Source of the DNA: a virus
Strand: one strand, 5' to 3'
Length of the DNA: 64,000 bases
IMG/VR virus record: IMGVR_UViG_3300006841_000093
Span: 70,506-134,505 of that record
Under the pieces are notes generated by a model. That model made no database searches. It saw nothing but the letters and a program-made list of their open reading frames with translations, and had not been told where the DNA came from. Positions 32,360-60,362 of this stretch are shown piece by piece (position 1 is the stretch's first letter; every line of letters begins with the position of its first letter). A program made the position numbers and the translations under genes.

Positions 32360-32521
32360 TTGAAGCTATAGTATGGTTTCTACCATGGCTTACAGAAGCA
32401 TGGTTGTGGGAGAACTCAGTAAAAATTGCAATAGTAGGTACATTAATATTTCAGAAACCTCGTAACTGGTGTGTTGATTATGATTCACAAGGTTACGATA
32501 CTTTATTTTATTGTTTGTAAT

Positions 32522-34132
32522 ATGAATATTATTATAGTAGGTGGTGGTACTGCAGGATGGATGACAGCAACCACACTATTAAGTGAATTTCCTAACAAAA
32601 AAATTACACTTGTAGAATCCCCAAATATTTCTAATATAGGTGTAGGAGAAAGTACTGTTGCGGGTGGTCAAAGTGGTTTTCAAGGTATTGCTAATTGGTT
32701 AAATTTGGTAGGAATTAATGATCTTGATTTTATGCCACATTGTGATTCTATCTACAAATTAAGTATAGCATTTAAAGATTGGTATCGTAAAGATTCGGGG
32801 ACATTTCATTATCCTTTTGGTCAGCCAAGAGTTCTACCTAATATTGGATTGGATGATTGGTATTTTAAAAAAATATTTTTCCCCCAAGCTTCCCCCACAA
32901 GTGATTATGCAAATAATTTTTTCCCAGGCATGGTACTTGTAAATCAAAACAAATCCCTCTTTACTGATAGTTTCAATTCTAATTCTGATCATTCAGAACT
33001 AAATGAAATAAACGATGAAGTTCAATTACATTCAAGATATTCTTATCAATTTGACGCCACTAAATTCGGTATATGGTTAAAAGACAATTACTGTAACAAA
33101 TTCAGTAACTTTACACATATTCTAGGAGAAGTAGAAAAGGCTTCTTTGGATGATAATGGAATTAAATATCTAATATTAGATGATGGACGAAGACTTAAAG
33201 CAGATTTATTTATAGATTGTACTGGATTTAAATCTTTATTATTAAAAGAATTTGATGTTCCATTTATACACATTGATAATTATCTTACAAATAATTTGGC
33301 ATGGGCCACAAAAATTCCCTATAAAGATCCTGAAACTCAAATTGTAAATTATACAAATTGTACAGCTATAGACAATGGATGGGTATGGGAAATACCTTTA
33401 TGGTCTAGAATGGGGGCGGGTTATGTGTTTTCTGATGAATTCGTTACTAAAGGACACGCTTTATGTGAGTTTAAAGCAGAACTACAGAAAAAGGGATATG
33501 AAGATGTCGAAGAATTAGATTATCACCTGATTTCAATGCGATGTGGCATTCATTCAAAATTATGGGTTAAAAATACATGTGCAATTGGTTTGTCTGCTGG
33601 GTTTATTGAACCATTACAATCTAATGGACTACATTGTACATATCAATTTCTATTTAACTTATGTCGTATATTAGAAAGAGATCATGTAAGTGAATGGGAT
33701 AGAAAAGAATTTACTACCAAGTGTCATGATGACTATTATGGATTTGCGGCAACAGTAGTAACTAATTATGCCCTTTCCCATAGAGATGATTCTAAATATT
33801 GGAGAGAAATACAAAATAAAAAATGGCCAGAAGAACTTTTTTCTCCTAATTGTAATGATTTATCGGGAAAATTTCATCAGGCATATAGAGATAGACAATT
33901 TAATAATCAATTCAATTCATATAGTCCTGTTCATATACTAGCGGCTGGCATGAATTGGAATCCTACAGATGTACATTCAATAAAATATGGTGGTGGTAAC
34001 TTAGATATTATGAAAAAAATAGCTTTTATTCATGCCATGAAACTTGAGGAAAGACAAAAAAATTGGAGAAATCAAATTAAAGATTTTCCAAGCCCTTATC
34101 AATATTTAAAGAAAAATATCCATGAAAGTTAA
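32522..34132 (+). CDS. tryptophan halogenase (PrnA)-like flavin-dependent enzyme
   Basis: IIVGGGTAGW, GVGEST, FIDCTGF, WVWEIPL and GFIEPLQS motifs; start at ATG 32522. Confidence 0.9.
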   Translation: MNIIIVGGGTAGWMTATTLLSEFPNKKITLVESPNISNIGVGESTVAGGQSGFQGIANWLNLVGINDLDFMPHCDSIYKLSIAFKDWYRKDSGTFHYPFGQPRVLPNIGLDDWYFKKIFFPQASPTSDYANNFFPGMVLVNQNKSLFTDSFNSNSDHSELNEINDEVQLHSRYSYQFDATKFGIWLKDNYCNKFSNFTHILGEVEKASLDDNGIKYLILDDGRRLKADLFIDCTGFKSLLLKEFDVPFIHIDNYLTNNLAWATKIPYKDPETQIVNYTNCTAIDNGWVWEIPLWSRMGAGYVFSDEFVTKGHALCEFKAELQKKGYEDVEELDYHLISMRCGIHSKLWVKNTCAIGLSAGFIEPLQSNGLHCTYQFLFNLCRILERDHVSEWDRKEFTTKCHDDYYGFAATVVTNYALSHRDDSKYWREIQNKKWPEELFSPNCNDLSGKFHQAYRDRQFNNQFNSYSPVHILAAGMNWNPTDVHSIKYGGGNLDIMKKIAFIHAMKLEERQKNWRNQIKDFPSPYQYLKKNIHES

Positions 34133-35373: not shown

Positions 35374-35835
35374 ATGAAAAAAAAACTTTATGTAGATATA
35401 GATGGTACGATATGTACTTTACACAAATCCTTTGATATAAAAGATTACACAAAAGGTGTGAATGTGCCCCGTGCCGATACGGGTCAAATAGCAGCATTCG
35501 ATTTTGAAGATTTACTAAACATCTATAAAGATATAAAACCTTATTATGATAGAATTGAACATATTAATTCTCTATATGATGATGGTAAACATAATATTAC
35601 TTATTGGACTGCTAGAGGATATAGACATACACAATTAATGAAACGTGCTGGTAGTGGATCAACAGATCATATAGCAGAAAAGGCTGCTTTTTATGAACTT
35701 ACTGAAAAACAACTTAAAGAGTGGGGTTGTAAGTATCATGAACTTCAAGTTGCTACTAAGCCTGTTTGGGATTTATATATTTGTGATAAATCTATACACT
35801 CAGATGATTATTTTTCAAAAGTATTGAATGGGTGA
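35374..35835 (+). CDS. HAD-family phosphatase-like protein
   Basis: YVDIDGTIC, YWTARG and KP..DLYICDK motifs. Confidence 0.75.
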   Translation: MKKKLYVDIDGTICTLHKSFDIKDYTKGVNVPRADTGQIAAFDFEDLLNIYKDIKPYYDRIEHINSLYDDGKHNITYWTARGYRHTQLMKRAGSGSTDHIAEKAAFYELTEKQLKEWGCKYHELQVATKPVWDLYICDKSIHSDDYFSKVLNG

Positions 35836-36232
35836 AAAGAATATAGTATGGAAGGGTGATTTCGAAATAGACCTTGTTAAACAAGATAGTTTAACAGTAA
35901 TGAGACATCACGCAGATCAACAAATAAAGAAACTTCAAGAACACGCAGTTCTATTGGTTGATCAAGTAAAAGAAATTATTGAAAGAGTGAGGTTAGCAGA
36001 ACTCATAGCAACAGCAGAGTATGGATTTAAACCTATACCTCTAAAAGAATATTATCTCTATGAAAAGGATGATAAGTTGGTACTAACATTAATCAGCCCA
36101 GATGAATGGGATTCACCTTATGGAGAATGTATTGCTACAGTAAGACAACTAGGAGATTCAACATGGGAACAGATAACATCAGAAGTCACAGAGACACAGC
36201 AGCAACAATCGAAGTACTCAGAGAACAAATAG
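35828..36232 (+). CDS. DUF2452-like protein
   Basis: A.YGFKPIP.K.YYLY....LTLISPDEW pattern. Confidence 0.55.
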   Translation: MGEKNIVWKGDFEIDLVKQDSLTVMRHHADQQIKKLQEHAVLLVDQVKEIIERVRLAELIATAEYGFKPIPLKEYYLYEKDDKLVLTLISPDEWDSPYGECIATVRQLGDSTWEQITSEVTETQQQQSKYSENK

Positions 36233-36372
36233 AAGTTTTCAGATCGAGAATTGAAGAACATGATACGGGTCATTTGTACACTACAATTTCGACCCTAGAA
36301 CACAGAATTGAAGAATTAGAAAAAGAATCAAAAGAACTAATCAACAAAGGATATATGTCGAGTTATGAATAA
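36163..36372 (+). CDS. small helical protein (paralog of 37223-37378)
   Basis: AGGAG RBS; IEVLREQIEVF...HDTGHLYTTISTLEHRIEEL. Confidence 0.6.
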   Translation: MGTDNIRSHRDTAATIEVLREQIEVFRSRIEEHDTGHLYTTISTLEHRIEELEKESKELINKGYMSSYE

Positions 36373-36643
36373 AGACCCAAAATACCCAGCTTGGTTGATT
36401 AAGTATTGTGGATCTTGAAACTATAAACCTCAGGCGGAAAGTCTTTCTGCTGAAATGAAGGCATTAGGTTTCAATGTCATAATACAAGAAGGTGATACTG
36501 GACAGTTTGAACTGTTTAGTCATAAGGGAACGAATTATAATTATAACGCCGAGAACTGGATTTCGTATATGAAAGAAGGTGATGGTGTTCCAAAGTTTTT
36601 TACATTACGTGATGTGGAAAAGAAATTATCTAATCTGATATAA
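36365..36643 (+). CDS. SelW/SelT/SelH (Rdx-family) selenoprotein with in-frame UGA at 36416-36418
   Basis: MNKDPKYPAWLIKYCGS-U-NYKPQAESLSAEMKALGFNVIIQEGDTGQFELF...; CxxU motif and GxxGxFE of the Rdx family; in frame with the track ORF at 36455. Confidence 0.85.
36430..36453 (+). promoter_or_regulatory. bacterial-type SECIS-like hairpin
   Basis: TCAG-g-CGGAAA-GTC-TTTCTG-CTGA stem starting 11 nt after the UGA; loop G lies 22 nt after the UGA. Confidence 0.6.
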
Positions 36644-36649
36644 AATAAT

Positions 36650-36883
36650 ATGATTACAATAAACATAGGACCAAAACAAGACCCCAAACGGGCAATACAA
36701 AAATTAAAGAATAAAGTAATAACAGAAGAGCTTTTTATTGAACTCAAACGCAGAAGACACTATCTTAAACCCTCTGCCCGAAAGAAACTTAAGAGAGAAG
36801 AAGCTGCTAAACAAAGAGTTAAAGATCAAAATAAGGCTCTCCGTAGAGCAGAACAACAATACAACGAAAACTTACAACGATGA
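36650..36883 (+). CDS. rpsU: 30S ribosomal protein bS21 (phage-encoded)
   Basis: AIQKLKNKV...ELKRRRHYLKPSARKKLKREEA matches the bS21 signature. Confidence 0.85.
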   Translation: MITINIGPKQDPKRAIQKLKNKVITEELFIELKRRRHYLKPSARKKLKREEAAKQRVKDQNKALRRAEQQYNENLQR

Positions 36884-36987: not shown

Positions 36988-37221
36988 ATGACAGCAATAG
37001 TATATTCAGGCACTAACTGTGTTTGGTGTGATAGAGTAGTAAATTTATTAAAAGAATATGGCGAAGAGATTACTAAAATTGATCTTGATAGCAAAGAAAA
37101 AGTAAAGGAAATGCAAGAAGCATGTGGAAAGAAAGTCAATACTGTACCTCAAGTAATCATCGATGGAGCACATATAGGTGGTTACACAGAAACAGAACGA
37201 TACATTAACCAACGGAAATAG
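36988..37221 (+). CDS. grx: glutaredoxin
   Basis: CVWC, TVPQVII and HIGGY motifs; AGGAGG RBS. Confidence 0.92.
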   Translation: MTAIVYSGTNCVWCDRVVNLLKEYGEEITKIDLDSKEKVKEMQEACGKKVNTVPQVIIDGAHIGGYTETERYINQRK

Positions 37222-41340: not shown

Positions 41341-41710
41341 GAGGGTAGGGATTCTCTGGCTACCCTCCGCTAGTCACCTACAGAGTACCCGTTGTGGTGT
41401 GTGTTCGACTAAGGGACACACGTAAGACACAGAGTAATGGGGGTGTAGACGGCCGATGTGACGGCGCTGAAGATGAGTGTCAGGGATCAGAGAGTGGGAA
41501 CAAGCCACTCAGACAGACTCTACGAGATGTTTCTTCCTTGATTGTCTGTCGAACAGATCAGGGTACGGCCTACCCTGTGAGGTGGGAATGTCCTAGTACA
41601 TGACTCCCGGAGACCTGCGACATCACTGCAGAGCCCGCATAACAAAAACTGTACTACTTAAATCTTTATTCTTATTGTTTCCCCTGTGTCAGAGATGGCA
41701 TGGGGGTTTT
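41341..41710 (+). ncRNA. large structured ncRNA candidate
   Basis: GC-rich and free of long ORFs; at least six stems (41341-48/41360-67, 41373-77/41458-62, 41399-406/41414-21, 41492-97/41505-10, 41512-18/41544-50, 41559-65/41571-77); terminator-like hairpin at 41681-41710. Confidence 0.6.
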
Positions 41711-59130: not shown

Positions 59131-59801
59131 AAAAGTTTATACATCTTGCCAATAGACCAGAATTGTCTTTTGGAATGAGGACTGAAAATCACAATGGAAA
59201 GAGACATTATGTTACCCCTGAAGGTGGACTATATCCATCAATCACAACAGTACTTGGCGAGTTGTCCAAAGCTGCAATACAGGCTTGGAGAGAACGCGTT
59301 GGAGAAGAAGAGGCAAATAAAATTTCGGGAAAAGCTTCCCGTAGAGGAACAAGCGTACATTCTGTCTGTGAATCCTATATCAAAAACGAAGACGATTTCA
59401 TTGATGGACAAACGCCCAACATTATTGAATTATTCAAAACGATTGAACCGTTCTTTGAAAGAATCAATAACGTTCACGGAGTTGAATTAGCATTATATTC
59501 GGATCATTTTGGGATCGCAGGGAGAACAGATTTAATTGCAGAGTTTGATGGTACGTTATCGATAATAGATTATAAGACAAGTAATAAGGCAAAGAAGAAA
59601 GAGTGGTGTGAAAGTTATTTCGCTCAAGGTGCATTTTACGGAGTTGCATACGAAGAACTCACAAAAATTCCTGTACCACAAGTTGTAATAATTATGGCAG
59701 TTGAAAATGAAGCACCACAATTATTTGTAGAAAAAAGAGATGATTGGATTGATAAGATTTGGGAAGCCAAAAAATTATATTATGAGTCACATCTTTTGTG
59801 A
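59127..59801 (+). CDS. PD-(D/E)xK exonuclease (T4-like phage type)
   Basis: YPSITTVL, RGTSVH and AGRTDLIA...IIDYKTS motifs. Confidence 0.88.
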   Translation: MKKFIHLANRPELSFGMRTENHNGKRHYVTPEGGLYPSITTVLGELSKAAIQAWRERVGEEEANKISGKASRRGTSVHSVCESYIKNEDDFIDGQTPNIIELFKTIEPFFERINNVHGVELALYSDHFGIAGRTDLIAEFDGTLSIIDYKTSNKAKKKEWCESYFAQGAFYGVAYEELTKIPVPQVVIIMAVENEAPQLFVEKRDDWIDKIWEAKKLYYESHLL

Positions 59802-59802
59802 C

Positions 59803-59809
59803 CTAAATA
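59803..59809 (+). promoter_or_regulatory. probable late promoter of the tmRNA gene
   Basis: CTAAATA immediately before the acceptor piece. Confidence 0.5.
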
Positions 59810-60073
59810 TTATTGAAGCTGTTGAAGTTTCTGAATAGCAGGTAAGACACCGGTGCGATTCCGGTCAGCTCCACCAAGAGTTCACTATCACATTTTGTGA
59901 ATTGTTGATGGGGCTGTAATAGAATTCGATTGGTTGTGATGTCAGAGAAAGAGGTTTCAATTAAACATAATCGCAAATAATAACGATTATACACCTGCAT
60001 ATGCATACGCAATCGCTGCGTAAGATATAGCCGAGTTGTGGCCGTCACTTGGGAACAGAAGCACGGTCAGCTA
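59810..60073 (+). ncRNA. ssrA: circularly permuted (two-piece) tmRNA
   Basis: T-arm ACCGG-TGCGATT-CCGGT plus CAGCTCC-A-CCA (ends 59876) lies upstream of the 5' end GGGGCTG (59910); 7-bp acceptor stem with G3:U70; tag 59973-60023 ANNNDYTPAYAYAIAA*; pseudoknot CCGAG/GGCCGT/CTTGG/ACGGTC. Confidence 0.92.
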
Positions 60074-60092
60074 ATTTTAATAGGAGTCAATT

Positions 60093-60362
60093 ATGTCAGA
60101 TTATAAAAATGGTTACAGATCAGAAGTAGCAAGATATATAAGAATACCTATTGAAAGAAAAGAATACGAAGAATATGTAGAGACAAGAGATTTGGTAGAC
60201 TTGGCCGGTAGAATTGAAAGGGGTGAACCACATGAAGTTAATCCTAACTATGGTGGACAAGGATATACATATCTTTATCCTGAAACAAAAGATTTAGGTA
60301 GATTAAAAGTAACCCCTGTAGAAGATACATGGAAATTAGAATGGGAGAATCTTCATGGCTGA
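60093..60362 (+). CDS. hypothetical protein
   Basis: AGGAG RBS. Confidence 0.6.
   Translation: MSDYKNGYRSEVARYIRIPIERKEYEEYVETRDLVDLAGRIERGEPHEVNPNYGGQGYTYLYPETKDLGRLKVTPVEDTWKLEWENLHG

Follow-up and report, generated by a model that had tools for sequence, protein, structure and literature searches.

Among selenoprotein families, SelW-like proteins are the most abundant in marine metagenomes, and a survey of marine trace elements has few or no viral sequences in its selenoprotein families (PMC9402790). The only viral selenoproteins named in a review of recoding are the glutathione peroxidases of poxviruses (PMC8310308), which are encoded by molluscum contagiosum virus and fowlpox virus (PMC8310308, PMC1802603). 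Here we describe a putative SelW-type selenoprotein gene from a bacteriophage. It lies in a 64,000-nucleotide stretch of DNA (the window, positions 70,506 to 134,505 of IMG/VR record IMGVR_UViG_3300006841_000093), and all positions below are those of the window unless stated. The gene has an in-frame TGA codon at 36416-36418, and we put the probability that this UGA is read as selenocysteine (Sec, U) by the machinery of the host at roughly 85%. We favour this reading because the TGA is kept among homologs, because it is followed by a co-varying hairpin in the register of cellular selenocysteine insertion sequence (SECIS) elements, because the protein has Rdx homology and an Rdx-like predicted fold, and because TGA is a normal stop elsewhere in the genome. 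Literature searches, which covered subscription journals thinly, returned no published bacteriophage-encoded selenoprotein. A preliminary description of this sequence had likewise noted that little is described of selenoproteins in bacteriophages.

Bacterial SelW-like genes resemble the phage gene in several respects. Both encode proteins of about 70-90 residues with the motif Y-C-x-x-U-N-Y-K-P and the secondary structure order β1-α1-β2-β3-β4-α2, and in both a hairpin with a G-U-rich loop begins at nucleotide (nt) 18, counted from the U of the UGA. The phage U also occupies the position of the second Cys in the solved structures 2fa8, 3dex, 2p0g, 2oka, 2ojl and 2obk. The differences lie in the carrier, which is a T4-like phage, and in the sequence, which belongs to a separate clade where G-Q-F-E-L-F and K-F-F-T-L replace G-G-V-F-D-V and G-R-F-P; the subclade of this phage also has an N-terminal extension. 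The poxvirus enzymes are comparable as host-derived viral redox selenoprotein genes that rely fully on host Sec machinery, and the fowlpox SECIS is also located inside the coding sequence (CDS). They are, however, genes of eukaryotic viruses with a eukaryote-type SECIS and a glutathione peroxidase fold, whereas the present gene belongs to a bacteriophage, its SECIS-like element is of bacterial type and its product has a predicted SelW/Rdx fold. The selenoprotein family and the recoding signal are both known, and what is new is the kind of carrier and the distinct clade.

The reading frame of the gene consists of 17 sense codons, the TGA as residue 18, 74 further sense codons and a TAA stop (Table 1). 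Its read-through product has 92 amino acids and contains Y-C-G-S-U-N-Y-K-P-Q-A-E. The list of open reading frames (ORFs) holds only a 62-residue remnant that begins at an internal ATG, and PHROGs has no family for the read-through protein. Contigs from independent public runs span the TGA and show no variant at the codon (one of them, X15, is a 3.4-kb contig, and the X6 contigs have 0 differences), so an assembly error is excluded as the source of the TGA. The start codon, the in-frame TGA, the continuation of the frame to 36643 and the shortened ORF from 36455 are all as the preliminary description gave them. It had further reported a hairpin with a loop G 22 nt after the UGA, and a cluster with ribosomal protein bS21 and glutaredoxin; we confirm the hairpin (stem 36433-36451, loop GUC) and find both genes directly downstream. 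The internal ATG encodes Met31 of the full-length product, and this codon is ATG in 69 of 71 phage-type sequences but Ile or Leu in cellular SelW genes. It might permit a Sec-independent 62-residue product, or it might merely supply a hydrophobic helix residue.

We propose that, during infection, host SelB carrying Sec-tRNA(Sec) would bind the hairpin 14 nt past the UGA and deliver selenocysteine to the codon, and translation would then proceed to the TAA at 36641. The phage would contribute the mRNA signal only, with tRNA-Sec, SelA, SelB and SelD all supplied by the host. The product would be a 92-residue thioredoxin-fold Rdx protein with a C-G-S-U active site. That Sec is inserted, that the host can decode it and what the protein does are inferred from the comparisons that follow.

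Conservation of the TGA was assessed with a degenerate DNA pattern in which the flanking codons were specified and the site codon was left as NNN. The pattern was run on IMG/VR, on metagenomes and on one genome per GTDB species; it needs N-Y-K-P-Q/E-A-D/E after the site, and distant Cys forms would escape it. It identified 12 viral loci (the window included), at least 119 metagenomic loci and 27 genomic loci from GTDB. Among the matches listed, all 158 loci have TGA at the site (12/12 viral, 119/119 metagenomic and 27/27 genomic), which is far beyond chance, and none of the 158 has TGG. The codons 5' of the TGA vary almost solely synonymously (TAT/TAC, TGT/TGC, GGN and TCT/TCC), and the phage-type loci encode at least 76 distinct proteins with identities down to about 50%. 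These data bear on the idea of a broken gene, in which the TGA would be a nonsense mutation in a decaying former CxxC Rdx gene. Such a gene would fit the failure of gene callers and PHROGs to recover the full-length sequence. The TGA is nevertheless kept at all 158 listed loci, which have diverged to about 30-50% identity, purifying selection acts on both sides of it, the hairpin downstream co-varies, and the codon is not polymorphic among independent assemblies. Conservation of the TGA, the flanks and the hairpin excludes gene decay, to which we give almost no credence.

When U was replaced by Cys, a protein search returned 119 relatives, most of which begin at the Met just past the hairpin because gene callers truncate the gene there; Met31 is the start of 81 of 132 database proteins. 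One of the representative matches, a repetitive protein of 1112 residues (P0123), is unrelated. The database proteins that span the site have W in 34 cases, R in two, S in one, a deletion of one codon in one and C in none. The 34 W proteins agree with a reading of the TGA as tryptophan, through genetic code 4 or a suppressor tRNA. For 11 of them, however, the identical 40-residue core is found in DNA loci with a TGA codon, and in three of these 11 the genuine TGA stop at the end of the gene is translated as W too. We attribute the W of database homologs to gene calling with translation table 4 on short AT-rich contigs, because identical cores carry TGA in the DNA and terminal TGA codons are read as W as well. 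The tryptophan reading also conflicts with the lack of any TGG locus, with the use of TGA as the stop of 47 among the 137 plus-strand ORFs that reach 100 residues, and with a search of the 134.5-kb genome in which no second gene split by TGA showed coding evidence on both sides together with a hairpin. The only tRNAs in the phage genome are Asn(GTT) and Tyr(GTA), alongside one permuted transfer-messenger RNA (tmRNA); there is no suppressor tRNA in the genome, and neither a suppressor tRNA nor a tRNA-Sec in 27 related contigs. A general TGA=Trp code is excluded by the ordinary use of TGA as a stop and by this tRNA set, and we regard tryptophan at this codon as very improbable.

The hairpin downstream of the TGA has a stem of 8 bp (36433-36440 paired with 36444-36451) and the apical loop GUC (36441-36443), with an optional closing pair C36431-G36452 over a bulged A36432. 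Counted from the U of the UGA, the stem occupies nt 18-25 and 29-36 and the loop is G26-U27-C28, so that the hairpin begins 14 nt past the UGA and the loop G lies 22 nt past it. Folding of the 66-nt context gives -17.4 kcal/mol (z = -2.6 relative to shuffled sequences), and the local hairpin has a folding energy of about -8.5 kcal/mol. Rfam at gathering thresholds reports no SECIS family at the hairpin, and it contains no matching bacterial SECIS model. By the rules used in bSECISearch-type searches, a bacterial SECIS is a stem-loop within the ORF with an apical-loop G about 16-37 nt from the UGA; the phage hairpin is located directly 3' of the UGA and has its loop G at nt 26. The best-known example, the SECIS of Escherichia coli fdhF, has a bulged U17, a loop G23-U24 and an 11-nt spacer. 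The phage hairpin shares with fdhF the stem-loop inside the ORF directly 3' of the UGA, the apical G-U, a short spacer and the presumed dependence on SelB, tRNA-Sec, SelA and SelD acting in trans. It differs in its 14-nt spacer and in the position of the loop G-U (nt 26-27 rather than 23-24, one codon further downstream). The phage loop has three nucleotides (GUC), and its bulge is an A at the stem base; the bulged U of fdhF is in the upper stem.

The stem is nearly invariant among 71 distinct phage-type sequences, and the variation that exists preserves pairing. Pair 21/33, which joins the wobble bases of an Ala and a Ser codon, is A-U in 51 sequences, G-C in 12, G-U in 7 and A-C in 1, a co-variation with Fisher p = 4.6e-8 when relatedness is ignored. 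Other stem codons are frozen (Glu GAA 71/71, Leu CTT 71/71, Ser AGT 65/65), while these amino acids, like the adjoining codons, vary among several synonymous forms beyond the stem. In Gammaproteobacteria and SAR324, SelW-like genes have a hairpin in the identical register, with the stem starting at nt 18 and a G/U-rich loop at about nt 26-27, and their stem letters and encoded residues differ from those of the phage. Pairs were counted across 116 distinct sequences, aligned without gaps, from these three groups (phage, gammaproteobacterial and SAR324). Standard pairs occur in 96.4% of cells compared with 80.1% after shuffling (0 of 500 shuffles reach the observed value), and the covariation score is 0.505 compared with 0.194. 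Four of seven pairs show changes on both sides, including one that is AU in 65 sequences, CG in 44, UA in 7 and unpaired in none. When the 3' arm is slid by 1-3 columns, pairing falls to 19-58% and scores to at most 0.156; the covariation statistics ignore phylogeny, and these slid controls retain relatedness. On this comparative evidence, the structure of the hairpin, beyond its sequence alone, appears to be under selection. The preliminary description had named Trp or Arg homologs and an unconserved hairpin as signs of a simple nonsense mutation; what we find is Trp residues that trace to TGA codons read with table 4, TGA at every DNA locus listed, and a hairpin that is conserved and co-varying.

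The encoded protein was compared with known families by sequence profile and by predicted structure. As a single sequence, it matches the NCBIfam model NF041051 (SelT/W/H) with E 6.7e-8 (32.7 bits, cut-off 88) and a second NCBIfam model, likewise under its cut-off, with E 4.7e-4. A profile built from phage and cellular sequences matches eight solved Rdx proteins, the best being 2fa8 (E 5.8e-9) and the others including mouse SelW (2npb) and MIEN1 (2ljk). The U column aligns with the second Cys of the CxxC motif in the solved Rdx proteins, which reads Y-C-T-Q-C in 2fa8 and 3dex, and Rdx homology extends across the TGA. Phage-only and cellular-only profiles align to each other in hhalign with 99.1% probability (E 9e-19). 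An AlphaFold2 (AF2) model of the protein (predicted local distance difference test score 84, predicted template modelling score 0.73) has the order β1, CxxU loop, α1, β2, β3, β4, α2 and places C15-G-S-U18 between a strand (E10-14) and a helix (H21-33). In VIA-align, the model superposes on 3dex, 2ojl, 2fa8, 2oka, 2obk and 2p0g with Z 8.5-9.2 and a root-mean-square deviation of 2.3-2.4 Å over 72-74 residues, and the next tier, which comprises thioredoxins and MIEN1, reaches Z of at most 5.7. Foldseek puts the same six Rdx entries first, with weak E-values of about 0.02. The protein is thus predicted to be a divergent member of the Rdx (SelW/SelT/SelH) family, because the profile comparison, the modelled fold and the separation in VIA-align all lead to this assignment. 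The match of the UGA=U translation to Rdx that the preliminary description anticipated is clear at the level of profiles and structure.

Several observations weigh against Sec insertion in this gene. The single-sequence match to Pfam Rdx (PF10262; E 1.4e-4) scores 22.4 bits against a cut-off of 22.6, and TIGR02174 (CXXU_selWTH) scores 20.4 bits against a cut-off of 34.2. No Cys form of the gene was found within the phage clade, either by pattern scans or by protein searches free of the motif requirement. The alternation of U and Cys that the preliminary description proposed to look for is therefore seen in part: Cys occupies that column in the solved Rdx relatives and the phage clade has none, so that Sec/Cys alternation is apparent at the family level only. 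Four variants without U are known from protein sequence alone. P0055 and P0130 have R at the site and P0042 has S, and P0045, a 102-residue protein found on 18 contigs, reads C-G-S-Y-Y-K-P and is one codon shorter. If real, P0045 would represent a lineage that lost Sec without gaining Cys; it is absent from viral contigs by pattern and by protein search. Contigs from metatranscriptomes are uninformative on expression, as one run yielded a 164-nt contig upstream (36078-36236) and none over the gene, and a second run yielded none. The remaining points concern the host. The capsid protein is closest among cultured phages to those of Pelagibacter phage HTVC008M (70% identity), OM43 phage Melnitz (66%) and pelagiphage Mosig (64%), and 135 complete Pelagibacter genomes are reported to have no selC (preprint 10.64898/2026.04.03.716425). 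If the host of this phage were SAR11, Sec insertion would be impossible.

One rival reading is that the UGA works independently of Sec. The codon would then be a real or leaky stop, and the hairpin would serve termination-reinitiation or near-cognate read-through. The products would be a 17-residue peptide and a 62-residue protein that starts at Met31; in hosts that have no Sec machinery, a read-through protein with Trp or Cys could be made instead. The ATG maintained past the hairpin in phage-type genes, the SAR11 and OM43 hosts of the nearest cultured relatives and the missing Cys variant all speak for such a mechanism. On the other hand, purifying selection acts on the 17 N-terminal codons, which form strand β1 and the CxxU loop that the fold needs, the hairpin matches the cellular SelW SECIS in position and shape, and inspection by eye shows no Shine-Dalgarno-like sequence at the usual distance before Met31. 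The cultured SAR11 and OM43 phages themselves count against it, as tblastn finds no homolog of the gene in HTVC008M, Melnitz or Mosig; this absence would be expected of a gene that persists only in settings where Sec can be decoded. On balance we consider a Sec-independent role of the UGA unlikely, although less remote than decay or tryptophan insertion.

If the UGA is read as Sec, the host must be a Sec user, as the preliminary description had reasoned, because the phage carries no tRNA-Sec, SelA, SelB or SelD. Searches of the 134.5-kb genome gave no match to selA, selB or selD, and one sub-threshold match to tRNA-Sec (RF01852, 34 bits) is an ordinary long-arm tRNA-Tyr(GTA). HTVC008M, Mosig and Melnitz share with this phage the T4-type capsid (64-70% identical), a genome size of about 135-147 kb, low GC content, a two-piece tmRNA and bS21 (PMC9004378); they differ in having no homolog of the gene and in their SAR11 and OM43 hosts. 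The two-piece tmRNA of Melnitz is of alphaproteobacterial type although the phage infects OM43, and this group is inferred to have switched hosts between classes (PMC9004378). The two-piece tmRNA is an unreliable host marker here for that reason.

Loci related to the phage gene are of two types. Those with G-V/I-F-D-V are cellular, have a GC content of 42-59% and encode a classic bacterial SelW-like sequence; none of 45 has a flanking ORF that resembles any protein of this phage, and the named carriers are metagenome-assembled genomes of Gammaproteobacteria (Pseudohongiella, OM182, Azotimanducaceae and others). Those with G-Q-F-E-L-F have a GC content of 30-39%, and nearly all with enough flanking sequence carry homologs of this phage's genes, in at least four different gene neighbourhoods. 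In several related phages (loci L003, L009, L010, L020, L040, L069, L101 and L113), the SelW-like gene is near a tRNA-Asn(GTT) and a homolog of an ORF of this phage that resembles asparaginyl-tRNA synthetase, rather than near bS21 and glutaredoxin; in the genome of this phage, that ORF precedes the start of the window by about 36 kb. The SelW-like gene has probably moved within these phage genomes. A quick tree of 80 columns separates the phage sequences, together with five near-identical cellular sequences, from all other SelW-like genes; this clade has support 100 and a long stem (branch length 2.15). GenBank phages gave no match to the DNA of the gene, to the protein by tblastn against about 50,000 deposited phage genomes, or to bS21 by tblastn.

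The five cellular sequences in the phage clade (L148, L022, L045, L096 and L098) have plainly cellular neighbours. L148 (2056-2271, minus strand) is a phage-like copy in a SAR324 single-cell genome, where it lies amid genes for a TetR-like regulator, a UbiB-like kinase and adenylate cyclase. This genome, which holds the closest cellular homolog, encodes a tRNA-Sec (56 bits) and SelB (360 bits), both above cut-offs. SelW-like genes are present in 29 of 88 genomes of the SAR324 phylum (L178-L188 among them); one of these has the phage-like copy and the 28 others have ordinary SelW-like genes. In all 29 the gene has exactly one in-frame TGA and its hairpin keeps the register described above, and standard gene callers would truncate every one of these genes. 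That no other genome among the 88 has a phage-like copy suggests that one SAR324 lineage and these phages have exchanged genes. Nothing links the single-cell genome directly to infection by this phage, as it has no T4-type capsid gene and its tmRNA is one-piece and not permuted. We infer that the sub-lineage of this phage infects a Sec-competent host, possibly SAR324-like, and that genes have passed between that host and the phages in one direction or the other.

The source genome is rated complete in IMG/VR and has a length of 134.5 kb and a GC content of 34%. It contains a T4-type major capsid gene (449 bits) as well as genes for a T4-type primase and ribonucleotide reductase. Because of these genes, and because homologs of phage genes flank the relatives, the carrier can be assigned on sequence grounds to the marine T4-like phages, and the clade is a phage form of the gene rather than a cellular contaminant. 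The gene sits within a long series of densely packed, co-directional small genes, whose nearest members are listed in Table 1. Scans for promoters, terminators and the T4 late-promoter motif gave chance-level results only. By blastn, no tmRNA similar to that of this phage was found among deposited phage genomes. Two other features of the window were noted in passing. An Ocean-VII RNA motif (RF03092) is present at 41474-41514 (68.5 bits, above cut-off), and a 553-residue ORF at 32471-34132 has an initial G-G-G-T-A-G-W dinucleotide-binding motif and by eye resembles a flavin-dependent (tryptophan-type) halogenase.

Table 1. Coordinates of the putative selenoprotein gene, its elements and other features of the window.
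Feature	Position	Strand	Basis or remark
Putative SelW/Rdx-like selenoprotein CDS, 92 codons including U18	36365-36643	+	ATG 36365, TAA 36641-36643; translation, Rdx homology, fold
Redox motif C15-G-S-U18	36407-36418	+	TGA 36416-36418 is the proposed Sec codon; β1-α1 loop of the model
SECIS-like hairpin	36431-36452	+	Fold, pair counts, same register in cellular SelW genes
Internal ATG (Met31)	36455-36457	+	Immediately 3' of the hairpin; start of the 62-residue called ORF
Upstream ORF	36106-36372		Stop overlapped by the selenoprotein ATG at 36365
Ribosomal protein bS21	36650-36883		Pfam E 4.5e-10; starts 6 nt past the selenoprotein stop
Glutaredoxin	36988-37221		E 1.3e-12; two genes downstream of the selenoprotein gene
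DUF2452 match, upstream ORF	35828-36232		E 1e-6
Circularly permuted (two-piece) tmRNA	59784-60114		Rfam RF04321, 88.8 bits; ARAGORN tag begins A-N-N-N-D-Y

To our knowledge, the biochemical role of SelW-like proteins is unsettled even in cells. The phage protein would likely act as a selenol/thiol oxidoreductase in the glutathione/glutaredoxin redox network during infection, since it combines a CxxU motif with a thioredoxin-like fold. The adjacent glutaredoxin gene fits a link to glutathione, although this is weak evidence because the relatives have other neighbours. The strict retention of Sec and the lack of a Cys form in the phage sequences suggest that selenium chemistry is what selection keeps.

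Taken together, these observations allow a broader scenario, which we offer as speculative and consider rather doubtful as a whole. Marine T4-like phages may be an unrecognised reservoir and vector of selenoprotein genes, in which the clade has kept Sec and never Cys such that selenium chemistry would matter in infection. Since the gene would work only in cells able to decode Sec, it might then mark a host switch from the SAR11 and OM43 hosts of the cultured relatives to a Sec-using deep-ocean lineage such as SAR324, and the copy of one SAR324 species, which nests with the phage genes, may be phage-derived.

If Sec insertion is confirmed, phages would exploit the UGA recoding of their hosts with an RNA signal of a mere 20 nt. 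Phage annotation pipelines would systematically truncate such genes or mistranslate them through table 4. The gene would also serve as a marker of host physiology, since it would denote a Sec user, and host prediction for abundant uncultured marine myophages would become testable. Finally, more than 70 distinct phage sequences that strictly keep Sec would constitute a natural experiment on the preference for selenium over sulfur in the poorly understood SelW family.

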